DNA of 60,396 nucleotides from an uncultured Pseudomonadota bacterium. Its GTDB lineage: Bacteria; Pseudomonadota; Alphaproteobacteria; RF32; CAG-239. A program made the translations under genes and the position numbers. The stretch spans positions 1 to 60,396 of the forward strand of contig CADAAN010000005.1 in the NCBI GenBank assembly GCA_902785935.1. The letters run 5' to 3'. A model generated the notes under the pieces. That model worked only from the letters and a program-made list of their open reading frames with translations, ran no database searches and was not told where the DNA came from. Below, piece after piece: positions 1 through 56,545 of this stretch. Within the stretch, counting starts at the first letter, position 1; every line of letters begins with the position of its first letter.

Positions 1-2564
<2,564 letters not shown>

Positions 2565-4266: not shown

Positions 4267-4514
4267 ATGACAGGTGAAGTAATTTATCTGTCAAGTGCCA
4301 GATAAGGGCACGGAGCTTTGAACAGCTCTACAAGCTGCAGTGAGGATAACACTGTGTTTTATAGTGTTGTTTTTTTGTTTTAAACAACATTTATCCCCGA
4401 AAAGTCGGGGGATCTGTGGCGTATGTACAAGGTTTAAACCTAAAGACCACGGAAGTCATTCCAGCTTGTATGATTGTTCAATTCCCCGTTGCTCTCAAAG
4501 GTGCGACTTTTTTT
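4267..4514 (+). promoter_or_regulatory. Structured two-terminator 5' leader RNA, family copy A
   Basis: Shares the ordered blocks of copies B-F: GUGCC..GGCAC hairpin, GGAGC hairpin, terminator 1 (AACACU/AGUGUU + U-run, 4348-4376), AUCCCCGA/UCGGGGGAU hairpin (4393-4413), GUGG...CCAC helix enclosing GUAUGUACA..CUAAAG, AGUCAUU, AUGAUU, and CCCC followed by terminator 2 (4487-4514). Confidence 0.75.
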
Positions 4515-4541
4515 AACAAACTTAATCATAGGAGAATCAAT

Positions 4542-9030: not shown

Positions 9031-9573
9031 TACCTCTCTTTAAAAGAATCATTAAATAATTCCCTTGTCTCAAAAGAAGAGTGGAATTATGATAGTGAAG
9101 ATTATTCCGTTTATACAAAAACAACATCGGATGGAAAGGTCGTATACAAACAGGATAATACGGATTGCTCTGGAGGCCTCTATGAATGTGGTGTTTGGAA
9201 AACTTATGATACAAAAGGAAATCTGATTAGTCAACGATGTGTTATGGCTGTTTATGATGACGCCCAATCCTCTGCTTATGCTGACTATTGTGATATGAAT
9301 GGGATACAAAACAATTATGCTGATAAATTATTTCAATATGATTATCAGTCTGAAGTTGAAAGAAAAATAGAAAACACGTACGATGAAAATTTAAATTTAT
9401 TGTACACAGAAGAATTCTTATATGTAGATGGTCAAGAGATAACTGATCACTACAAAAAAACGGTAAATGAATCCAGCAATTCAGAATCTAAGCCCGTCAA
9501 GCGCATATATACCATCGATGAGGCCAACCAAGTCGCTGGAAAGACAAACACCTTTTCGATTCGGTACAGCTAA
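9031..9573 (+). pseudogene. 5'-truncated member of the C-terminal-tag family (no start codon, RBS, signal peptide or leader)
   Basis: The frame is open from 9031, but the first ATG is at 9244. It ends ...KPVKRIYTIDEANQVAGKTNTFSIRYS*. The upstream in-frame part (EEWNYDSEDYSVYTKTTSDGKVVYKQDNTDCSGGLYECGVWKTYD) looks coding. Confidence 0.55.
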
Positions 9574-18599: not shown

Positions 18600-18851
18600 C
18601 AGATAAGAAAGTTTAGGCTTTTTTATCAAGTACCCTGATAGGGTGCGGAGTTTCTTAAGGCTCTATTAGCTGCGATGATAGGATACATCGTAATTTTATG
18701 GTGTTTTTTTGTTTTTAAAACACAATTATCCCCGAGATTTTAGTCGGGGGACTTGTAACGGATGTCCAAGGATTTTCCTAAAGGTTATAAGAGTCATTTC
18801 AGCTAATATGATTTTAAGATTCCCCGTCGCTCCTCAAGGCGCGGCTTTTTT
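18600..18851 (+). promoter_or_regulatory. Structured two-terminator 5' leader RNA, family copy B
   Basis: Same block order as copy A: GUACCC..GGGUGC hairpin, terminator 1 at 18685-18710, AUCCCCGAG/UCGGGGGA hairpin, GUAAC...GUUAU helix enclosing GGAUGUCCA..CUAAAG, AGUCAUUU, AUGAUU, and CCCC followed by terminator 2 at 18824-18851. Confidence 0.75.
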
Positions 18852-18891
18852 AATATGTAATGACATGCAAAATAAAAACAGGAGAAAAAAT

Positions 18892-19788
18892 ATGAAAAAA
18901 TATATTTTGATTATCGGATTGATCATATCATGGAGTGCAAAGGCAAGTGATGAAATAACGATTGTGGCTCAAACAGACCCGAATGATGCTTCAACAAAAT
19001 GCGGGAATGATTGTACATGGAAACTTTACAGCGACGGCCGGTTTGAAATAACAGGAACAGGTGCCATGTATGATTACGGGCAAAAACACGGAATTAATAC
19101 AAACTGGGCTGTAGATGGTTCTCCTTGGGATGATTATATCGATCAAATTAAATCCGTCGACATTTCACACGGCATTACGACAGTAGGAAATAGCGCTTTT
19201 AAAGGAGCCTTAAATTTAAAAAATGTTCAAATACCAGAGGGTGTGGTATCAATCGGAAATGGCTCATTTATGAGCTGTCAGATGCCTGAAATCAAATTAC
19301 CGGATTCACTCAAAAAAATAGATGCTTGGGCATTTGCAGAAAGTGTATTTTCAAAAATTGATATACCTGTTTCTGTCGAAGAGATAGGACGAGCTGCATT
19401 TTGGGGTACAAGAATCGGAACACTTGTCTTGCCGGATTTGCTCAAATCTATGGCAAGTGATGTATTTTACGCATCTACGGTCAACACAATTGTAATTTCA
19501 GATAAGCTCAGCAACATTGATCAAGGCGCTTTTAACGGCGCAATTCATTTACAATCGATTTACTGCACCGGCGATGTCGATGTTTGCAAAACAAATGTCG
19601 GCGAAAGTTTTGCCGATAAAGTCAAAAAAGCCTCAATAAAGAAAATTAACGGCGTGACATATGTTGTTGATAACAAAGGAAAAATTGTCGCGACATCCGG
19701 CCATCGTACAGAAAAACGCATTTATACAATCGATGAAGCAAACCAAGTTGCTGGAAAAATAAATTCGGTCTCAATTCGGTATCGATAA
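18892..19788 (+). CDS. Secreted BspA-type leucine-rich-repeat protein with C-terminal RIYTIDEAN...IRYR tag
   Basis: Start at 18892 after GGAG. Signal peptide MKKYILIIGLIISWSAKA. Repeats of the type IxxIGxxAFxxC/xxLxxIxIP. The last 24 aa are KRIYTIDEANQVAGKINSVSIRYR. Confidence 0.85.
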   Translation: MKKYILIIGLIISWSAKASDEITIVAQTDPNDASTKCGNDCTWKLYSDGRFEITGTGAMYDYGQKHGINTNWAVDGSPWDDYIDQIKSVDISHGITTVGNSAFKGALNLKNVQIPEGVVSIGNGSFMSCQMPEIKLPDSLKKIDAWAFAESVFSKIDIPVSVEEIGRAAFWGTRIGTLVLPDLLKSMASDVFYASTVNTIVISDKLSNIDQGAFNGAIHLQSIYCTGDVDVCKTNVGESFADKVKKASIKKINGVTYVVDNKGKIVATSGHRTEKRIYTIDEANQVAGKINSVSIRYR

Positions 19789-20530: not shown

Positions 20531-20558
20531 TATTTTTCCCCAAATGATGAAACAGTAG

Positions 20559-20777
20559 AAAAACCACCTTTTAAGGTGGTCAGGGCGTTCATAAATCATA
20601 TATCTCGAAATGACTTTGATGGTCTTTAGAAAAAAAATCCTGAACATTCACCATCAACACCCCGACCGAATGTCAGGGATATAATTTGTTTTGACAGCTA
20701 TCCAACTGTCACGAGATATAAAGGTTTATGAAAACCCCGCACCTTTTCGGTGCTGTACGGCACAATATAACCATACT
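20559..20777 (-). promoter_or_regulatory. Structured 5' leader RNA, family copy F (divergent; terminator 1 lacks a U-run)
   Basis: Minus strand reads GCGGGGUUU..AAACCUU hairpin, GACAG..CUGUC hairpin, AUCCCUGAC/GUCGGGG hairpin, UUGAUGG...CCAUCAA helix enclosing GAAUGUUCA..CUAAAG, AGUCAUUU, AUGAUU, CCCUGAC, then terminator CCACC/GGUGG + U5 (20559-20580). Candidate promoter TTGTTT-17-TATACT at 20784-20812. Confidence 0.6.
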
Positions 20778-21431: not shown

Positions 21432-21617
21432 ATGCAATCCGCTCCGTCAACAACTCAATATTCAAACACCTATTACATCAAAAATGCTGATGGCAGTACA
21501 ACCATGAAAAATGCAAATGGTGATATCATAGGCTTTGAGGGCAAGCGTATTTACACCATCGATGAGGCGAATGCCGTTGCGGGTAAAGTCAATTCTGTTA
21601 CGATTCGCTACCGATAG
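21432..21617 (+). pseudogene. Orphan 61-codon ORF that carries only the C-terminal tag region
   Basis: ...NANGDIIGFEGKRIYTIDEANAVAGKVNSVTIRYR*. No SD sequence, signal peptide or LRR part. Confidence 0.5.
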
Positions 21618-25876: not shown

Positions 25877-25927
25877 GCCAATCAGGTCGTGGGAGAAACA
25901 AATACCTTTTCGATTCGATACCGATAA
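25877..25927 (+). pseudogene. 16-codon remnant of the C-terminal tag
   Basis: gcc aat cag gtc gtg gga gaa aca aat acc ttt tcg att cga tac cga taa translates to ANQVVGETNTFSIRYR*. The IYTIDE part is missing. Confidence 0.6.
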
Positions 25928-33032: not shown

Positions 33033-34085
33033 TTATCGATACCTTATCGAAAAAGTATTTCTCGAACCCGCAACAAAATTAGCCTCTTCAATGGTATAAA
33101 TCCGGCGCACATCGTAATTGCCTTTTAAAAGGTCATTGATGCTTTGATACGTTTTGCCGCCATATTTGAGCATATAATTGCCGTCGCTTGCAACCAAAGC
33201 GTCGCAATCAGCGTCTTGGCAAATCCCGCGGTTGATTAAAGCCTGCTTTTTACAATGGTTTAATGTATCTGCGCAAACATACTGTGCTTTTTCTTCAGCA
33301 CTTGATGCCGTATCGCCTTTTTTCATATCATCGGATGAAAGGTAATAATCATCGCCAATCACATAAACCCCGCCATCAAAGGCATAGCTTTTGACTTCCG
33401 CATCATCGCCGCGATATGCTATCGCCGCCGCGCACTCTGATATGAGCGATTCGGGACAATACAGGTTTGTGAGGTTTTTTAGTTTATAATTCTCATAACC
33501 TTCCAAATCACCAAAAGATTCCAAAGCCACAGTGCTAACAGAAGGCGGAATAACAAAATCTGTCAACGCCGTATCAGCAAATGTCATATACTTAATACTT
33601 GTCACATTTTCCATATTGCCGTTGACTTGAGTTAAAGTTTGTGTCGCAAATGCCCAATCTTCAATTTCTGTCACACTGTCAGGGATAGTAATGCTTGTTA
33701 TTTTACTACGATGAAGTGATTGAACCCCGATTGATAACAGACCTTCCGGCAATGTAATTTCTTTGATAGATGTATTTGCAAAAGCAGCTCGTCCGACTGT
33801 TGTAATTCCACTTTCAACATCAACTTTTGTAATACTGGCATTCCCCCACCAAGGCGCATCTGTCCGATAGCCGACACCGGGTTCGCTCCAACGATAATAA
33901 TCTTTGATTTTAGCCGGTTTTGAGGCGTCAATCGGGGAGATTGTTAAGGTGTATGTTGTGTTGCCGTTGTCATCCGTTCCGTTTTCGACATAAGAATATG
34001 TGCAATTTTCCCCGCACGAGGGTAATTCCTCGGCATTTGCGTTAAAACTTGCTATCAAACCTAAAATCAAAACATATTTTCTCAT
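33033..34085 (-). CDS. Secreted BspA-type LRR protein with C-terminal tag
   Basis: Start at ATG 34085 after AGGAG. Signal peptide MRKYVLILGLIASFNANA. LRR units such as ITTVGRAAFANTSIKEITLPEGLLSIG. Ends RRIYTIEEANFVAGSRNTFSIRYR*. Confidence 0.85.
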   Translation of the reverse strand: MRKYVLILGLIASFNANAEELPSCGENCTYSYVENGTDDNGNTTYTLTISPIDASKPAKIKDYYRWSEPGVGYRTDAPWWGNASITKVDVESGITTVGRAAFANTSIKEITLPEGLLSIGVQSLHRSKITSITIPDSVTEIEDWAFATQTLTQVNGNMENVTSIKYMTFADTALTDFVIPPSVSTVALESFGDLEGYENYKLKNLTNLYCPESLISECAAAIAYRGDDAEVKSYAFDGGVYVIGDDYYLSSDDMKKGDTASSAEEKAQYVCADTLNHCKKQALINRGICQDADCDALVASDGNYMLKYGGKTYQSINDLLKGNYDVRRIYTIEEANFVAGSRNTFSIRYR

Positions 34086-38517: not shown

Positions 38518-38772
38518 CGGATGGGAAAAGGAATTTTTCTATCAAGTGCCTGAGACGGGCGCGGAGCTTTCCAAAGCTCATTGACCTTAGACAGTGAGGA
38601 TAACACTGTATTGATGTGGTGTTATTTTTTGTTTTAAATAACACATTATCCCCGAAAAATGATCGGGGAGCCGGTAGCGGATGTTCAGGATTTTTAATCT
38701 AAAGGTTATCGGAGTCATCTTCTAAGGTATGATTTTGGAACTCTCCGACCGCTCTTTTAGGGGCGGTTTTTT
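38518..38772 (+). promoter_or_regulatory. Structured two-terminator 5' leader RNA, family copy C
   Basis: GUGCC..GGGCGC hairpin, GAGCUUU/AAAGCUC hairpin, terminator 1 AUAACAC/GUGUUAU + U6 (38600-38630), AUCCCCGA/UCGGGGAG hairpin, CCGGUA...UAUCGG helix enclosing GGAUGUUCA..CUAAAG, AGUCAUC, AUGAUU, and terminator 2 ACCGC/GCGGU + U6 (38748-38772). Confidence 0.8.
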
Positions 38773-38809
38773 GGTATTGTCATCGCGTCACGATACCATA
38801 AGAAGAACA

Positions 38810-38963
38810 ACAACTATTTTTTGTAAAGGAATTAAAAAAATGAAAAACAATGAAAACGGCCGTTCAATGGTTGAAATGCTCGGTGTACAACTATTTTTTG
38901 TAAAGGAATTAAAAAAATGAAAAACAATGAAAACGGCCGTTCAATGGTTGAAATGCTCGGTGT
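38810..38963 (+). repeat. Perfect 77-bp tandem duplication covering the RBS and first 16 codons of the pilin-like gene
   Basis: 38810-38886 equals 38887-38963: acaactattttttgtaaaggaattaaaaaaatgaaaaacaatgaaaacggccgttcaatggttgaaatgctcggtgt. Confidence 0.95.
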
Positions 38964-39552
38964 TTTGGCGATTATCGGCGTCTTGTCAGCCGGCGGTTTG
39001 GCAGGTTATTCAAAGGCCATGTTCAAACATAAATTGAATACCACTATGGATCAAATCACAATGCTTGTGACGAATATCCGCACAATGTATGGCACACAAG
39101 GAAATTATGCGGGACTTGATGGTAATAAGGCCTATGACTTAGGCATTATTCCAGCAGTGATGGCTGAAGATGGTAGAAAAACAAATGACGGAGTGACCAC
39201 TGGTGGTGTTTCTTTAACAAACCCATTCAAAGGTAGTGTTTCTATTGCAGCAGTCGAAATTAAAACAGGTGATTTAGCATCGGCCACAACAACAGATGCA
39301 ACAAAATCAACAGGTTTTAGCGTAACTTACGATGGTTTGCCGAAAGAAGCTTGCATCGCGTTGTCAACAGCCGATTTTGGTTCAGGAGCAGGTTCTGGTT
39401 TTATCGGCGCTAAAATTACCGGTAAAACACAGTCTGGCACTTATGGCTCTACAACAGAAGGTGACGCCTACACAATGGCAGGAAAAGGTTCTGTCCCCGG
39501 TGCAATAGATGCTTGTAGCGAAAATACAGCTATTACATGGTTTTTCTATTAA
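38917..39552 (+). CDS. Type IV pilin-like / pseudopilin-like protein 1
   Basis: N-terminus MKNNENG|RSMVEMLGVLAIIGVLSAGGLAGY has Gly at -1, Glu at +5 and a hydrophobic helix. Residue +1 is Arg rather than Phe or Met. Confidence 0.7.
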   Translation: MKNNENGRSMVEMLGVLAIIGVLSAGGLAGYSKAMFKHKLNTTMDQITMLVTNIRTMYGTQGNYAGLDGNKAYDLGIIPAVMAEDGRKTNDGVTTGGVSLTNPFKGSVSIAAVEIKTGDLASATTTDATKSTGFSVTYDGLPKEACIALSTADFGSGAGSGFIGAKITGKTQSGTYGSTTEGDAYTMAGKGSVPGAIDACSENTAITWFFY

Positions 39553-39586: not shown

Positions 39587-40243
39587 ATGAGAAATTTTAA
39601 TGAAAGCGGCCGTTCAATGGTCGAGATGCTTGGTGTGTTAGCTATCATTGGTGTGTTATCCGCCGGTGGTTTAGCAGGCTATTCCAAAGCGATGTTTAAG
39701 CACAAATTGAATACGACGATGGATCAAATTACGATGCTTGTAACAAATATCCGTACGATGTATGGAACGCAAAAAAGCTATGCCGACTTAGATAATGATC
39801 AGGCCTTTAAATTGGGTATTATTCCTCCAGCAATTGCAACGGCTCTGGGAGGTCCATATAGAAATCCATTTAAAGGGAATGTTGTCATTAGTGGTAAAAC
39901 AGCAAAAGCAAGATCAACAGCTCCTGTTGGTACAGCATTTATCGTTCAATATACTGGTTTACCTACAGAGGCATGCATCGCTTTAGCAACAGCTGACTTT
40001 GGTAGCGGTGCCGGTTCAGGTTTTATCGGTGTCACAGTTGATGATGTTGATACACCAAAAATTGGTGAAGGTGATAATGATCCGACTGATATCGCAATTT
40101 ACATAGGTGATGGGGCTGGTAAAACAGCTGATGGTGCTACAGCTGCCACTAAACTACGTGGCGAAGGTGAGGCATATCAAATGTCTGCAGCCATCACAGC
40201 TTGTTCTGGCGCTACAAATAACATTACTTGGAAATTCTACTAA
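39587..40243 (+). CDS. Type IV pilin-like / pseudopilin-like protein 2 (paralog)
   Basis: Residues GRSMVEML...TNIRTMYGTQ are identical to those of protein 1, although the codons carry many synonymous differences. Shared EACIAL.TADFGSGAGSGFIG block and ITW.FY C-terminus, with a variable middle. Confidence 0.7.
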   Translation: MRNFNESGRSMVEMLGVLAIIGVLSAGGLAGYSKAMFKHKLNTTMDQITMLVTNIRTMYGTQKSYADLDNDQAFKLGIIPPAIATALGGPYRNPFKGNVVISGKTAKARSTAPVGTAFIVQYTGLPTEACIALATADFGSGAGSGFIGVTVDDVDTPKIGEGDNDPTDIAIYIGDGAGKTADGATAATKLRGEGEAYQMSAAITACSGATNNITWKFY

Positions 40244-43232: not shown

Positions 43233-43462
43233 CGATGGAAGTGATTTCATTGAGAACCGAGAGGTTCGGGGCTGTAGCAGGCTCTATGTTCAGTGATACC
43301 AGAAATGGTATCCTTTTAGGATGCCTTTTTTTGGTATTTAAATCCCCGCTCGGGTGGGGAGATTATGGCGTATGTACAAGCCTTAAAGCTAAAGGTCATA
43401 ATGGTCATTACACTGAACATGATTTGCTAACTCCCCTGCCGCTCAATTGAGCGGATTTTTTT
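43233..43462 (+). promoter_or_regulatory. Structured two-terminator 5' leader RNA, family copy D
   Basis: GAACC..GGUUC hairpin, terminator 1 GGUAUCCU/AGGAUGCC + U7 (43307-43332), UCCCC..GGGGA hairpin, UUAUG...CAUAA helix enclosing GUAUGUACA..CUAAAG, GGUCAUU, AUGAUU, CUCCCC, and terminator 2 CCGCUC/GAGCGG + U7 (43439-43462). Confidence 0.7.
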
Positions 43463-43465
43463 GTA

Positions 43466-43541
43466 ATGACGTTAACAATAACAACGTCATCCTGAACTTG
43501 TTTCAGGATCTTTTTAGATCCCGAAATAAATTCGGGATGAC
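43466..43541. repeat. Nested-palindrome (three-hairpin) MITE/REP-like element between leader D and the RBS
   Basis: ATGACGTT..AACGTCAT, ATCCTGAA..TTCAGGAT and GATCCCGAA..TTCGGGAT hairpins, closed by outer complementarity GTCATCC...GGATGAC. Absent from the equivalent position in copies A, B, C, E and F. Confidence 0.5.
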
Positions 43542-43558: not shown

Positions 43559-44686
43559 ATGAAGAAATATGTTTTGATTTTAGGAATACTCGCAAGTTTT
43601 AACGCACAAGCAAATGAAGGTTGGAAAAATTGCGATGATGAAGGCAGCTCAAATTGTGAATATCAAATCAAAGACGGCGTTTTAACCGTCCGTCCGCAGG
43701 ATGATACGCAACCTGCAAATATTCCGGATTTCGCAAGAGATTGTTCAATGACACGGTATTCTGAGTGTACGACAACCGCACCATGGAAATGGGATGAGAA
43801 TACAAATACGATAACAACCTTAAAAGTTGAAAATGGTATCACTTCTATCGGATCAGATGCTTTTGAAGATATGCCTTTTACAACGGCACACTTGCCCGAC
43901 ACCTTAACTTCAATCGGAAGTTTTGCTTTTCTAGAATCAGGTAAGTTAGGGTACATTAATTTACCGAACAAGCTTGAAACAATAGGTGATTATGCTTTTA
44001 CCTCCAATTTCTCAAGTCAAAATAATAATATTGTTATTATTCCTGATTCGGTTAATGAAGTTGGAAAGTATGTTTTTTCAGGAGGAACGGAGAGAATTGT
44101 CGTGGGTGGAAATACGAATCTTGACCCTGATGCATTAATTTATTACGGACAAACAAGCACGAAAATCCAGTTTAACCATTTTACAATGTATTGCGCCGAA
44201 AGTAATACATCTTGCCAAGAAGCGATTGAAAAAGCTTTGAATTTTGCAAAAAATGCCGGAAATGCTGATGTCTCTGCACAAGCTTCTGATTTTCTTACAA
44301 CTTACACCAAGGACGATAACGGATTTTATCAAATCGGTGATAAACTTTATGCAACGGCAGATTTGATGACCAAAGGCGCTGCTTGTGATAATCCGCAAAA
44401 CTGCCGAGATATTTTAGATGCCGCATCACAAGGCAAGCCTTTTGAAGTCGGCGGCAAATATTACGCTACGCTTGATTTGTTTGCAAGGGGCGCGGCTTGC
44501 ACGGACAAACAAAATTGTGAAGATATTTTGGCCTCAAACGGGGCGCCTTTCAAAGTCGGTTCAAAAATCTACAATTCGATGGAAGATTTTGCTTTAGGCA
44601 ACAATATCAAATTCCGCATCTACACCATCGATGAGGCGAATGAGGTCGCGGGAAAGACAAATTCCTTCAAAATCAGGTATCGCTAG
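43559..44686 (+). CDS. Secreted BspA-type LRR protein with C-terminal tag
   Basis: Signal peptide MKKYVLILGILASFNAQA. LRR units such as ITSIGSDAFEDM..LPDTLTSIGSFAF..LPNKLETIGDYAF. Three GxKxY..DL..G modules. Ends FRIYTIDEANEVAGKTNSFKIRYR*. Confidence 0.85.
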   Translation: MKKYVLILGILASFNAQANEGWKNCDDEGSSNCEYQIKDGVLTVRPQDDTQPANIPDFARDCSMTRYSECTTTAPWKWDENTNTITTLKVENGITSIGSDAFEDMPFTTAHLPDTLTSIGSFAFLESGKLGYINLPNKLETIGDYAFTSNFSSQNNNIVIIPDSVNEVGKYVFSGGTERIVVGGNTNLDPDALIYYGQTSTKIQFNHFTMYCAESNTSCQEAIEKALNFAKNAGNADVSAQASDFLTTYTKDDNGFYQIGDKLYATADLMTKGAACDNPQNCRDILDAASQGKPFEVGGKYYATLDLFARGAACTDKQNCEDILASNGAPFKVGSKIYNSMEDFALGNNIKFRIYTIDEANEVAGKTNSFKIRYR

Positions 44687-44862
44687 ATTAGCGTAAAACA
44701 AAAAAACAGATTTTTCTTTTAAGAAGGTCTGTTTTTTTTGCAAAAATACAAAAATTTTTACACCTTTTGCTTGACTTTTAAAAAAACAGTATTAAAAGTA
44801 TCTCGCTAGCAATTTTTTAAGGGGCATAAAGGCCTCTTTATAAATCGATTTTAAGGAACGTT

Positions 44863-52544: not shown

Positions 52545-53492
52545 TTAGCGATACTTTATTTTAAAAGAATTAACTTTACCTGCGACCTGATTGGCCTCAT
52601 CAATGGTGTAAATTTTTTTATTCCTAAAACCAATAATATTATTATCAGCATCTAAAATTGTAACACTTCCATCAGGTTTTATGATTTCTTGCTTTGATGG
52701 TAGCGCATTTCCTTTTACAAGATCTTCAAGAGAAGCATATTTTTCCCCTCCGTATTCTAAAATTTTCCCATCAGAGCTTGCTTCTATAAGAGCAGGACAT
52801 TCATCTTCGTCACACAAGCCTTCTTCTTGCAAAAATGCCATTTGAGCTTCGTATAATGAACTAAACCAACGTCCATCATCATAAAACATGTCATCAAAAT
52901 AAAAATAATACATTTCTTGTGAACCGCAAAAATAAATTCCACCATCTTCTTTTGTATACCATTCCAGATTGGTTGTTCCTTTCTTGGGATTTAATATTCT
53001 TCCATCGTTCATCCAAGAAGAACCTTCTGGAATAAACATAGCTTCTATAGATATATAATCAAATGCTCCATTTTTTACTTCCGTAACCGAATCCGGAACA
53101 ACCAATGCATCTGATTTAAGTCCTGCAAACGAATATTTTCCTATTGAATTTAAGGAATTTGGTAAAGATACGTACTCTAAATCATAAGATTCAAAACAAT
53201 CTCCATGAGCACAGTGGCCAAAAGCATAATTTCCAATATTTTGGATGCCTTCTGCAACATAAATGTTAGTTATATCAGGCACATAAGATTTCCATGGTAC
53301 ATCATCTTGATGCTCATAATCATCCATTACGGCTGTATCTCCGTTTGTCGGCTCGATGATTAAAGTGTAATCATTACCAATTTTCCAACTGCAATTTGTA
53401 CCGCACGTACCACCCTCTGCAACAAGTGCATTTGTTTGTGTGGATGAAAACATTCCGATAAAAAATGTAAATACAAGAATTTTATTTTTCAT
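52545..53492 (-). CDS. Secreted LRR-containing protein with C-terminal tag
   Basis: Signal peptide MKNKILVFTFFIGMFSSTQTNA. CGTNCSWKI...PW N-terminal module as in the other members. LRR units such as IQNIGNYAF, LPNSLNSIGKYSF. Ends KKIYTIDEANQVAGKVNSFKIKYR*. Confidence 0.8.
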   Translation of the reverse strand: MKNKILVFTFFIGMFSSTQTNALVAEGGTCGTNCSWKIGNDYTLIIEPTNGDTAVMDDYEHQDDVPWKSYVPDITNIYVAEGIQNIGNYAFGHCAHGDCFESYDLEYVSLPNSLNSIGKYSFAGLKSDALVVPDSVTEVKNGAFDYISIEAMFIPEGSSWMNDGRILNPKKGTTNLEWYTKEDGGIYFCGSQEMYYFYFDDMFYDDGRWFSSLYEAQMAFLQEEGLCDEDECPALIEASSDGKILEYGGEKYASLEDLVKGNALPSKQEIIKPDGSVTILDADNNIIGFRNKKIYTIDEANQVAGKVNSFKIKYR

Positions 53493-53520
53493 ATTTTTTC
53501 TCCTTATTTTTTACGTCATT

Positions 53521-53768
53521 AAAAAAAGTCGCACCTTATAGAGCGACGGGGAGTGTGAAAATCATGTAATGGAAAATGACTCTGGTGACCTTTAGGTAAA
53601 CCTTGTACATTCGTCGCCAGCTCCCCGAGCATTTTTCGGGGATATTCGTGTTTAAAAATAAAAAAACACTATAAAGTTACAGTGTATCTATCACTGTCCA
53701 TTACAAAGGCTTTCACAAGCCCCGCACCCTATCAGGGTACTTGATAGAAAAATCACTTTTTCCATCCG
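53521..53768 (-). promoter_or_regulatory. Structured two-terminator 5' leader RNA, family copy E
   Basis: Minus strand reads AUCGGAUGGAAAAAG..UCAAGUACCCUGAUAGGGUGCGGGGCUU..AAGCC, terminator 1 ACACU/AGUGU + U7 (53655-53685), AUCCCCGA/CUCGGGGAG hairpin, CUGGCGAC...GUCACCAG helix enclosing GAAUGUACA..CUAAAG, AGUCAUUU, AUGAUU, CUCCCC, and terminator 2 GUCGC/GCGAC + U7 (53521-53547). Confidence 0.78.
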
Positions 53769-55645: not shown

Positions 55646-56407
55646 ATGAAAAATTCATTATATATTTCCATTGTCGCACTTGTCGTTTCAGTTGCGACGG
55701 CACTTTGTGTGTTTTTATGTTGCTGCTGCAATCATCAATATCAAAAACCGATGCTCAAATCTGCACCGGTTGCATTGAACGTTGATGATGTTCGTACACT
55801 GCTTGAAAACAATCCGGAAATTGTCGTCAATGCTTTGCAAAGATATGAACAAGTTCAGCGTGAAGCTCAATTGCAAGAAGCTTCTCGCTTGTTCAAAGAA
55901 AACATTGAAGAACTCAACAATAATGCAAATTCGCCGTTTGTCGGTCCGAAAGATGCAAAGATTGTTTTGGTTGAATTCTTTGATTTTTCATGCGGCTATT
56001 GCAAGAGATTAGCTCCTGCTGTTGAAGAAATCGTCAAGAAAAATAAAGACATCAAAGTTGTCTTTAAGCCGATTACATTCGTTGCACCGATTTCAAAATA
56101 TGCCGCTCAAGCTGCTTTGGCTGCAAATGAACAAGGTAAATTTATGGATATGTACAAAGTTATGCTTAGTGCAGATTCCAAATTGACGGAAGAAACAATC
56201 AACGCTATGGCTGAGAAAGCCGGTCTTGATATGAAGAAATTCAAAGAAGCCGTCAATTCAGACAAAGTCTTGAACACAATTTCGGAAGTTGCAAAATTGT
56301 CAGAAAAATTGCAAATCCGCGGTGTCCCGACACTTGTTTTGAATGGTTCTCAAATTCAAGTGATTGATGAAGCCGGTATTCAGGCTGAAATTGATCGTTT
56401 GAAATAA
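55646..56407 (+). CDS. DsbA-family thiol:disulfide oxidoreductase (membrane-anchored)
   Basis: N-terminal TM segment, FFDFSCGYCKRL CxxC motif, RGVPTLVLNG cis-Pro loop. Confidence 0.85.
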   Translation: MKNSLYISIVALVVSVATALCVFLCCCCNHQYQKPMLKSAPVALNVDDVRTLLENNPEIVVNALQRYEQVQREAQLQEASRLFKENIEELNNNANSPFVGPKDAKIVLVEFFDFSCGYCKRLAPAVEEIVKKNKDIKVVFKPITFVAPISKYAAQAALAANEQGKFMDMYKVMLSADSKLTEETINAMAEKAGLDMKKFKEAVNSDKVLNTISEVAKLSEKLQIRGVPTLVLNGSQIQVIDEAGIQAEIDRLK

Positions 56408-56497: not shown

Positions 56498-56545
56498 AAT
56501 TTTGTCGCAGGTTCGACAAATACCTTTTCGATTCGCTATCGGTAA
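56498..56545 (+). pseudogene. 15-codon remnant of the C-terminal tag
   Basis: aat ttt gtc gca ggt tcg aca aat acc ttt tcg att cgc tat cgg taa translates to NFVAGSTNTFSIRYR*. The frame is open only from 56462. Confidence 0.55.

Follow-up and report, generated by a model that had tools for sequence, protein, structure and literature searches.

In an uncultured clade of rumen Alphaproteobacteria, a lineage-specific and massively expanded family of Sec-exported BspA-type LRR proteins is defined by a C-terminal peptide of about 24 residues. This tag is real and selected as a peptide, strictly terminal, coupled to a signal peptide and restricted to one clade. It is unannotated in Pfam, NCBIfam and PDB sequences and, from its sequence context, is probably a surface-targeting or anchoring signal.

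Results

The window, a 60,396-nucleotide stretch of DNA analyzed as a whole, contains six complete copies of the tag, with the consensus (K/R)RIYTI(D/E)EANxVAGxxNxxxI(R/K)Y(R/K)-stop, and two relics of 15–16 residues (Table 1). All eight occurrences listed in the initial annotation were verified by coordinate, as were the four C-terminal peptides that it quoted. Only four of the eight, however, belong to intact genes. The LRR label given to these four is correct: each matched PF13306 (LRR_5; E 1e-12 to 6e-37), and scores of 48–127 bits against a cut-off of 27.7 place them among BspA-type LRR proteins. Open frames E and F look like 3′ remnants because both lack a signal peptide and an LRR domain; E is probably derived from a non-LRR member, and its RYS end departs from the RYR of the consensus first proposed. 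Relic G lies directly 3′ of an unrelated gene and 5′ of a terminator hairpin.

Table 1. Tag-bearing genes, remnants and leader RNA copies in the window.
Feature	Coordinates	Strand	Tag stop	Description	Profile match
Gene A	18892..19788	+	19788	Intact, 298 aa: signal peptide, LRR_5, beta-hairpins, tag (19714-19788)	PF13306 E 6.5e-37
Gene B	33033..34085	-	33033	Intact, 350 aa: signal peptide, LRR_5, Cys-rich modules, tag (33033-33107)	PF13306 E 1e-21
Gene C	43559..44686	+	44686	Intact, 375 aa: signal peptide (MKKYVLILGILASFNAQA|NE), Cys motif, LRR_5, 3 beta-hairpin/helix modules, tag	PF13306 E 1.1e-17
Tag of protein C	44612..44686	+		FRIYTIDEANEVAGKTNSFKIRYR + stop (translation, codon table)	
Gene D	52545..53492	-	52545	Intact, 315 aa: signal peptide, LRR_5, tag (52545-52619)	PF13306 E 1.1e-12
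Open frame E	9031..9573	+	9573	Tag-bearing; no signal peptide, no LRR; ends ...FSIRYS	
ORF F	21432..21617	+	21617	61 aa, tag-bearing; no signal peptide, no LRR; 3′ remnant	
Relic G	25877..25927	+		Last 15 tag residues only, NQVVGETNTFSIRYR*	
Relic H	56498..56545	+		Last 15 tag residues only, NFVAGSTNTFSIRYR*; DsbA gene upstream	
Leader RNA	18726..18868	+		Ends 23 nt before gene A ATG	CM R1, 154 bits
Leader RNA	43340..43474	+		84 nt before gene C ATG	CM R1, 75.5 bits
Leader RNA	53511..53645	-		18 nt before gene D ATG	CM R1, 148.6 bits

The tag core gave six matches in six-frame translation of the window, compared with a mean of 0.11 across 200 shuffles; the terminal half followed by a stop gave six compared with 0.01. 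Across the 24 tag codons, pairwise identity was 62–88% for amino acids and 64–76% for nucleotides. For 13 of 15 pairs, at least roughly half of the shared residues differed in codon. Since identical residues mostly differ in codon, selection acts on the tag peptide, and its conservation lies at the protein rather than the DNA-repeat level, as had been claimed.

The distribution of the tag was narrow. Among 185,579 species genomes, it was confined to five rumen Alphaproteobacteria MAGs, one of which carries approximately 60 loci. Exhaustive HMM searching yielded 658 protein clusters with the tag, all either unannotated or "hypothetical", and database annotation across the family reads "hypothetical protein" only. 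The claimed position at the very C-terminus held in every case examined: the match ended on the last residue in 150/150 of the matches listed from the exhaustive search, the motif began 22–24 residues before the stop in around 80 genome loci, and an internal copy occurred in none of the 227 proteins collected. A Sec-type signal peptide (basic n-region, hydrophobic h-region, AxA-type site) was present on all 51 complete ORFs. Tagged genes are scattered singly among housekeeping genes.

PF13306 was detected in 51 of 55 full-length family members, which follow the layout signal peptide, disulfide-bonded LRR head, variable stalk of small modules and 22–24-residue tag with a free carboxyl end. The stalk varies greatly, with 40–150 variable residues separating the tag from the LRR domain. 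Cys pairs are conserved in the tagged proteins, and a DsbA gene is present in the window. The few non-LRR carriers are a TPR/SNAP-like protein and others in which Pfam found faint matches or none. Open frame E and the non-LRR tagged protein of L050 have only the tag in common. Non-LRR carriers and the variable stalk suggest, at the level of sequence, some independence of the tag from its passenger.

The tag is the most conserved part of these proteins, at about 3.2 bits per column compared with 0.3–2.3 elsewhere. Positions I-21, Y-20, A-15 and Y-1 never vary, and E-16, G-10, N-7, I-3 and [RK]0 scarcely do. Tags fall into classes of 22, 23 and 24 residues, and some are divergent, for example RILTVDEASALVKDNKNTFTLKYR. 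Two strand-like segments are conserved, (K/R)RIYT(I/V) and Nx(V/F)x(I/L)(R/K)Y(R/K)-COOH; between them lies a short helix or loop whose length varies (DEANxVAG, ...VAKPTG, or longer). Basic residues (an initial KR pair, K/R at -2 and 0 and, in many tags, K at -8/-9) give a net charge of about +3 to +4. All 187 unique tags end in R or K preceded by Tyr; Arg is terminal in 119 of the 151 unique tags of the 22-residue class (79%). Hydrophobic runs never exceed three residues, in line with the initial observation that the hydrophobic helix and basic tail of sortase-type signals are absent.

AlphaFold models were built for two of the proteins from alignments of 125–133 sequences each. Both had a confident body (pLDDT ~90), while the last 25–28 residues scored 60–71 and formed only the short DEANxVAG helix. 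Protein C had a mean pLDDT of 88 with its tag at 63–71, and the tag of protein A scored 60–69; such low values are weak evidence, homo-oligomers and partners being invisible to AlphaFold here. In both predicted monomers the tag is unpacked against the body. Foldseek matched the LRR body to 4H09, 6MLX (T. pallidum TpLRR), 4FS7 and PcpA, and the closest structures are LRR cell-surface proteins of gut bacteria.

The comparison with Pfam and NCBIfam that the initial annotation had proposed returned no match on the tag, either in whole proteins or in isolated tags, at E up to 10. Against PDB sequences, a profile search turned up nothing beyond a fortuitous "IYTIDEA" in ribosomal protein L1 (E about 0.1). 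Literature searching with the tag peptide string gave no match, and keyword searches found nothing on a tagged LRR family. Neither refuting condition named in the initial annotation, a match to a described sorting or anchor domain or equal occurrence at internal positions of cytoplasmic proteins, went against its idea. Annotation of all window genes revealed housekeeping functions plus a YadA-type adhesin, Skp, two bundlin-like pilins, DsbA and an M23/LysM peptidase, with ten ORFs lacking any family assignment. No sortase-, exosortase- or rhombosortase-type sorting enzyme was found among them, as noted at the outset for the window, or in the flanks of 80 genome loci. Likewise, neither the window nor these flanks contained a receptor, protease or transporter candidate beside the tagged genes, no chaperone or usher gene was seen in the window or loci (Pfam gave no PapD- or usher-like match among the window genes), and all-against-all clustering of ORFs from the 80 loci gave no recurrent neighbor.

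A structured leader RNA of approximately 140 nt, supported by covariation and without an Rfam match, was observed upstream of most tagged family genes, type IV pilin genes and outer-membrane-protein genes. Among the genes sharing it is one of about 231 aa that resembles an outer-membrane protein (L096, L132). The RNA includes a T-tract and predicted GGGGAG pairings that are mutually exclusive. Its occurrence across these three classes suggests, from sequence, a single surface regulon.

Discussion

We tentatively favor, at a little short of an even chance, a signal that acts after Sec export in targeting or retention and that folds upon receptor binding. The tag would be a flexible tail in the free protein. 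After Sec export, its two strand-like segments would fold onto an envelope receptor by β-strand addition, with the terminal carboxylate forming part of the recognition. Binding would then deliver the LRR head to, or keep it on, the outer face of the outer membrane. We infer the surface destination, receptor binding and β-augmentation of the tag; because no partner gene was found, a sorting or anchoring role, as first proposed for it, is likewise read from position and context.

Nearly all carriers belong to one paralogous family, so a signal and a conserved family end look the same by distribution alone. Given this near-confinement and the narrow clade (five MAG species), the tag could equally be a structural or oligomerization element. 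Here it would act as a dimerization, oligomerization or strand-swap motif joining LRR proteins into multimers or arrays, with no sorting role. We consider this, the main rival, somewhat unlikely. It accords with the lack of a partner gene and with the unpacked tag of the monomer models, as expected of an oligomerization tail, and the β-α-β-like pattern cannot hold its fold alone and needs a partner, possibly another tag copy. A strict extreme C-terminus with a terminal basic residue is, however, more typical of recognized termini than of oligomerization motifs, and the tag also occurs on a few proteins with unrelated bodies. The latter could be chance fusions with 3′ relics, such relics being common. 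A less probable alternative, which we regard as doubtful, is that the tag anchors the protein non-covalently by attaching straight to an envelope polymer (LPS core, capsule or peptidoglycan), using its net positive charge and amphipathic strands, without a protein receptor or transport role. The net charge and the absence of a dedicated gene nearby fit such an anchor, and the head-stalk-anchor layout would resemble that of other anchored adhesins. Yet the near-invariant non-charged positions (I, Y, T, E, A, G, N, I, Y) point to a stereospecific partner rather than electrostatics, the tag has no similarity to LysM, SLH, SPOR, OmpA-like or choline-binding modules, and the crossing of the outer membrane by a soluble protein is left unexplained.

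Two further explanations carry little weight. A divergent member of a known signal class (T9SS C-terminal domain, outer-membrane-protein β-signal, sortase/exosortase/rhombosortase signal, T1SS signal or Lpp-type terminal lysine) is very improbable. Hydrophobic and polar residues do alternate along the last strand, Nx(V/F)x(I/L)(R/K)Y(R/K), as in a β-signal. Its final residue, however, is R/K and in no case aromatic, unlike the ...GVTWSW terminus of the YadA-type autotransporter in the same organism. The empty family searches, the missing hydrophobic helix, the Sec signal peptides on all carriers (absent from T1SS substrates) and the prevalence of terminal Arg, which means that an Lpp-like ε-amino cross-link is not conserved, all argue against it. 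Scarcely credible at all is conservation at the DNA level, as a gene-conversion repeat, a recombination site for cassette exchange or part of a terminator. Eight copies within 60 kb, of which four are 3′ fragments lacking a promoter, do recall the donor pseudogenes of antigenic-variation systems, and terminator-like hairpins follow most copies in the window. But these hairpins are unrelated to each other in sequence, nucleotide identity is low with many identical residues differing in codon, and conservation keeps to the reading frame and goes no further than the stop codon.

The most far-reaching version of the receptor-binding signal, which we think unlikely, makes the tag the recognition signal of an undescribed pathway that moves folded Sec-exported proteins across or onto the outer membrane, with the adhesin repertoire, pilins and outer-membrane proteins gated by a new riboswitch-like leader RNA. 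As part of that joint and equally unlikely reading, the signal would be a β-loop-β element of about 24 residues that must end in a basic residue and has no counterpart among known secretion or sorting signals.

To our knowledge, little is known of how diderm bacteria display soluble adhesins apart from the T9SS, T5SS and Slam-type systems. If the tag is a surface-display signal, it offers direct access to such a mechanism in a lineage without a cultured member; if it is only structural, it defines a new protein family rather than a new mechanism. It is found on dozens of paralogues per genome, is a practical marker for the putative surface repertoire of these rumen bacteria and deserves a Pfam or NCBIfam model. 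The leader RNA provides an experimental handle on surface-gene regulation.

Comparison with known systems

The T9SS C-terminal domain is a folded β-sandwich several times longer than 24 residues that is removed by PorU, and we know of it only in Bacteroidota; its own function is outer-membrane translocation and surface attachment. Like that domain on BspA of Tannerella forsythia, the tag is C-terminal, sits on Sec-exported BspA-type LRR proteins and has many paralogous carriers per genome. It was rejected as a T9SS domain on its conserved block of 24 residues (22–24 overall), its alphaproteobacterial host and the lack of an NCBIfam or Pfam match. The β-signal recognized by BAM, which also acts after Sec export, resembles the tag in its terminal amphipathic strand with alternating hydrophobics, near-terminal aromatic residue and preceding G/N turn. 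A terminal R/K after Tyr in 187/187 unique tags, and a soluble LRR solenoid in place of a barrel as passenger, excluded this assignment; the autotransporter of the same genome retains a canonical ...TWSW end unlike the tag.

Chaperone-usher pilins end in F-x-(V/I)-x-Y-x-COOH, with a penultimate Tyr and a carboxylate used in recognition by PapD-like chaperones through β-zippering. The hydrophobic/polar alternation of the tag's last strand recalls these termini, and the pilin motif is the model for folding on binding. The likeness ends with the terminal pattern: the tagged proteins have an LRR fold rather than the pilin Ig fold, the conserved Gly of the tag is at -10 and not -14, and PapD- or usher-like matches were absent among the window genes, so this candidate was set aside.

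LPXTG, PEP-CTERM, GlyGly-CTERM and PGF-CTERM are also short C-terminal tags common to many paralogous exported proteins per genome. Sortase, exosortase, rhombosortase and archaeosortase signals consist of a motif, a transmembrane helix and a basic tail, whereas the tag has no hydrophobic helix; with no run above three residues and no NCBIfam match, sortase-, exosortase- and rhombosortase-type signals were dismissed. E. coli Lpp ends in ...YRK, but peptidoglycan attachment through a terminal lysine was discarded on the 119/151 tags of the 22-residue class that end in Arg. A T1SS C-terminal signal was ruled out by Sec-type signal peptides on 51/51 complete ORFs and all four intact window genes, and an LRR cap by the 40–150 variable residues that part the tag from the LRR and by its unpacked state in the models.

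In Tannerella and Treponema, LRR proteins of the BspA/LrrA type serve as cell-surface adhesins (PMC2843621). The BspA-like and TpLRR families of mucosal microbes show large lineage-specific expansions and variable C-terminal anchoring devices (PMC2843621). Although its C-terminal end is different from theirs and previously undescribed, the tagged family carries the same LRR_5 head as Tannerella BspA, Treponema LrrA and Trichomonas TvBspA, in agreement with its matches to 4H09 and 6MLX.

The tag is conserved as a peptide

A peptide shared by the C-termini of secreted LRR proteins had been described in the initial annotation, and this observation was confirmed by translation, six-frame scanning and shuffling. 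Positions 44612–44689 translate to FRIYTIDEANEVAGKTNSFKIRYR and a stop codon, the tag of gene C. The core (I/V/L)Y(T/S)(I/V/L)x(E/D)A was matched six times in the six-frame scan of the whole window, compared with a mean of 0.11 in mononucleotide shuffles, and all six copies sit 22 residues ahead of a stop codon. Over the 24 tag codons, pairwise identity among copies was 62–88% for amino acids and 64–76% for nucleotides. In 13 of 15 pairs, at least about half of the shared residues were encoded by differing codons, bearing out the earlier point that the same residues recur with different codons. The DNA 3′ of the tag stops consists of terminator-like hairpins, mutually unrelated in sequence. 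Identical residues with differing codons and unrelated downstream DNA together place the conservation on the peptide; the codons used contradict an explanation at the level of DNA.

All eight occurrences reported earlier were seen, only four of them in intact genes (A–D). These four open with a typical Sec signal peptide (e.g. MKKYVLILGILASFNAQA/NE), followed in order by a conserved Cys motif, a BspA-type LRR (PF13306, E 1e-12 to 6e-37), a variable region and the tag. The region between LRR and tag holds 'GxKxYxSxxDLxxGNY' hairpin-helix modules with Cys pairs, or YD-like β-hairpins. The stalk of C (residues ~246–346) comprises repeated units of ~35–40 residues, each a β-hairpin 'F/LKVGxKxYxSxxDL', a short helix and a Cys-x(4–6)-Cys helix, at AlphaFold pLDDT ~90; no Pfam family covers these units. 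The same module occurs in B and many homologues, and YD/RHS-like hairpins take its place in other family members.

The remaining copies (E–H) have neither signal peptide nor LRR and lie at the ends of unrelated genes; they look like 3′ remnants, two with the last 15 residues only. Such promoterless remnants, with the tag and 0–160 upstream residues and no signal peptide, are as common as intact family genes. They lie where housekeeping genes end, as between pnp and metK at locus L082, and their abundance is probably explained by a rapid birth and death of the family.

Features of the window and of related loci (tag stops from the six-frame scan; leader RNAs from the covariance model)
Feature	Coordinates	Strand	Remarks
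Tagged gene A	18892–19788	+	Signal peptide, LRR, tag; tag stop 19788
Tagged gene B	33033–34085	−	Signal peptide, LRR, tag; tag stop 33033
Tagged gene C	43559–44686	+	Signal peptide, LRR, tag; tag stop 44686
Tagged gene D	52545–53492	−	Signal peptide, LRR, tag; tag stop 52545
3′ remnant E	9031–9573	+	Complete tag; stop 9573
3′ remnant F	21432–21617	+	Complete tag; stop 21617
3′ remnant G	25877–25927	+	Partial tag, last 15 residues only
3′ remnant H	56498–56545	+	Partial tag, last 15 residues only
3′ remnant, locus L082	6001–6180		
3′ remnants, further ORFs P0001–P0034			
162-aa family member, locus L050	~1481–1969	+	Leader RNA upstream
Leader RNA	18726–18868	+	Before tagged gene A
Leader RNA	43340–43474	+	Before tagged gene C
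Leader RNA	53511–53645	−	Before tagged gene D
Leader RNA	38646–38790	+	Before bundlin-like pilin gene
Leader RNA	20540–20682	−	Before membrane methyltransferase gene
Leader RNA	4391–4530	+	Before gene without known function
Weaker leader RNA match, locus L114	2633–2783		
Weaker leader RNA match, locus L143	810–941		
Weaker leader RNA match, locus L146	144–280		
YadA-type trimeric autotransporter ORF	15–2564 (5′ end provisional)	+	Canonical ...GVTWSW β-signal
DsbA-like oxidoreductase	55646–56407	+	Adjoins relic H
Tandem bundlin/PilS-like type IVb pilin genes	38917–39552, 39587–40243	+	N-termini ...GRSMVEMLGVLAIIGVLSAGGLAGY
Paralogous ORF, 173 aa	20819–21340	−	Function not assigned
Paralogous ORF, 177 aa	37931–38464	+	Function not assigned

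Distribution of tagged proteins

A back-translated pattern scan of 185,579 species, one genome per species, gave 102 matches. All 80 loci listed lie in five rumen Alphaproteobacteria MAGs (RUG11221, RGIG5118, RGIG10106, RGIG9974 and UBA3773), ~60 of them in RUG11221. The motif started 22–24 residues before the stop in ~80 of the 83 ORFs of these loci, the exceptions including one chance match and one ORF running off its contig end without a stop. A signal peptide was present in every ORF with a complete 5′ end (51/51), and LRR_5 in 51 of 55 full-length members. The others are a TPR/SNAP-like protein (L045) and three with no Pfam match or faint RHS- or MORN-like similarity only (L050, L072, L081); remnant E and the L050 protein are 78% identical over 23 tag residues, with no similarity detected elsewhere. 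Locus L050 also encodes a 162-aa family member that stops just past the post-LRR 'YC...C' motif, without stalk and tag. Whether a pseudogene or a naturally tagless variant, it offers a possible comparison for tag function.

When 1.84 billion cluster representatives were searched exhaustively with HMMER, 658 proteins were returned at E ≤ 1e-3 (264 at E ≤ 1e-10). Each of the 150 matches listed was terminal, ending exactly on the last residue. Named members were all 'hypothetical protein [Alphaproteobacteria bacterium]', and the exact protein C was present on metagenome contigs (ENA ERZ27280375). The window LepA has >120 metagenome relatives at 89–100% identity, any name given being 'Alphaproteobacteria bacterium', which indicates an abundant but uncultured clade.

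Tag anatomy and structural models

The last 30 columns of the family alignment carry ~3.2 bits per column versus 0.3–2.3 elsewhere. Among 151 unique main-class tags, I-21, Y-20, A-15 and Y-1 (counted from the last residue as 0) are invariant, R-22, T-19, E-16, G-10, N-7 and I-3 almost so, and every one of these tags ends in R or K. One residue is added in a second class, where VAKPTGN replaces VAGxxN, and two in a third; loops of metagenome members diverge further (e.g. RILTVDEASALVKDNKNTFTLKYR and IYTVQEANDLIKELGGDTFRFSIRYK). With ends conserved and loops changing, the constant parts are two strand-like segments, (K/R)RIYT(I/V) and Nx(V/F)x(I/L)(R/K)Y(R/K)-COOH. Between them lie a short acidic helix and a loop of varying length, and the net charge is ~+3 to +4. 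AlphaFold2 models of C (125 sequences) and A (133 sequences) had confident bodies (mean pLDDT 88 and 87), with pLDDT 60–71 over the last 25–28 residues. There the DEANxVAG helix alone forms, and the tag is unpacked against LRR or stalk.

A leader RNA precedes many tagged genes

Alignment of regions upstream of tagged genes revealed a conserved ~140-nt element of four helices and a terminator-like GC hairpin with T-run, compensatory changes being visible already among three window copies. A covariance model built from these three found 34 strong copies (67–154 bits) in the window and genome loci, ~28 of them in L002–L081. A copy lies upstream of 23 of the 51 complete tagged genes of these loci, ending 1–130 nt (mostly 7–14 nt) before the ATG. 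Scanning metagenome contigs with a pattern yielded 86 stretches; the model confirmed 75 of the 80 listed as loci (L083–L162), and by their sample and contig names most seem to be rumen metagenomes. Genes 3′ of 71 examined metagenome copies are mostly tagged family members (~43 of 65 callable ORFs, counting run-off ORFs and divergent tags); others include four type IV pilins, three outer-membrane-protein-like and two XRE-type-regulator-like genes. Three weaker matches (37–49 bits; L114, L143, L146), two on contigs of much higher G+C (0.56–0.62), may represent distant homologues of the RNA beyond the rumen clade, or the pattern may have matched there by chance.

The helices are strongly supported by covariation. 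Paired cells made up 93.4% in the genome set versus 36–50% with partners slid, with double changes at 31 of 33 pairs; 72 distinct metagenome copies gave 95.6% versus 35–52%, with compensatory changes at 8/8 pairs of helix P2. The GC hairpin and T-run close the element directly 5′ of the ribosome-binding site. The P1 3′ strand GGGGAG has mutually exclusive partners, the 5′ TCCCC or an ACTCCCC box adjoining the terminator, the alternative helix being 92% paired versus 49–77% slid (double changes at 5/7 pairs). The leader had no Rfam match; it is a candidate new regulatory element, resembling a riboswitch or attenuator, of a surface-protein regulon.

Gene content of the window

The rest of the window is diderm housekeeping DNA (lepA, rho, class I tRNA synthetase, mfd, dnaN, recF, rpoD, glyS, thyA, folA, glycogen genes), together with a YadA-type autotransporter, Skp, two bundlin-like type IV pilins, DsbA and an M23/LysM peptidase; ten ORFs had no family match. 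Together the autotransporter and DsbA show that the envelope is of the ordinary diderm type and that disulfides form in the periplasm, which fits the Cys pairs conserved in the tagged family. The same leader RNA as at the LRR genes precedes the first tandem pilin gene, and this linkage recurs at metagenome loci L087, L094, L122 and L129. The paralogous 173- and 177-aa ORFs share an N-terminal M(K/R)LYHY... and a C-terminal ...YLL(I/V)(I/L)K(G/N)G(I/V)I(D/E)(A/P)KYLKKI, with no Pfam or NCBIfam match. Annotation of the window genes gave no sortase-, exosortase- or rhombosortase-like gene, in agreement with the earlier remark that no dedicated sorting enzyme is evident there.

Possible function of the tag

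As a C-terminal module the tag is new, lacks annotation and is restricted to its clade; a sorting or anchoring role is plausible. We tentatively favor a peptide recognized after Sec export that would bring the LRR head to the cell surface or keep it there. This reading draws on the strictly terminal position at a constant distance from the carboxyl end, the invariable pairing with a signal peptide, the head-stalk-tail layout, the unpacked tail in the models and the occasional presence of the tag on unrelated bodies. BspA-type LRR proteins elsewhere are surface adhesins with diverse C-terminal anchors (PMC2843621). The main rival, a structural or oligomerization motif of a single paralogous family, is somewhat less likely. 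It is favored by the near restriction of the tag to LRR_5 proteins and by the finding of no partner gene and no recurrent neighbor in the 80 listed loci; the non-LRR carriers could have arisen by accidental fusion with the abundant 3′ relics. It is doubtful that the tag is an anchor binding polymer directly.

Comparison with known signals

The tag was matched by no Pfam or NCBIfam model, whether scanned as part of the whole proteins or alone with E up to 10. Among all PDB sequences, the profile matched nothing but a chance IYTIDEA in ribosomal protein L1, and a literature search for the peptide string found no occurrence in the papers covered. The distinctions drawn in the initial annotation held. 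The tag has no hydrophobic helix, which rules out a sortase-, exosortase- or rhombosortase-type signal, and it is far too short for a T9SS C-terminal domain, for which the host phylum is also wrong. A T1SS signal is excluded by the Sec signal peptide of every carrier, and the predominance of Arg at the last position argues against an Lpp-like cross-link via a terminal lysine. The last strand alternates in the same pattern as a β-signal, but it ends in R/K rather than an aromatic residue, whereas the genome's own autotransporter ends in ...GVTWSW; a canonical β-signal was therefore rejected. The analysis found no pilin fold and no usher. In formal terms the tag comes nearest to the C-terminal ...FxVxYx-COOH strand by which chaperone-usher pilins are bound by a chaperone, through β-zippering anchored on the carboxylate.
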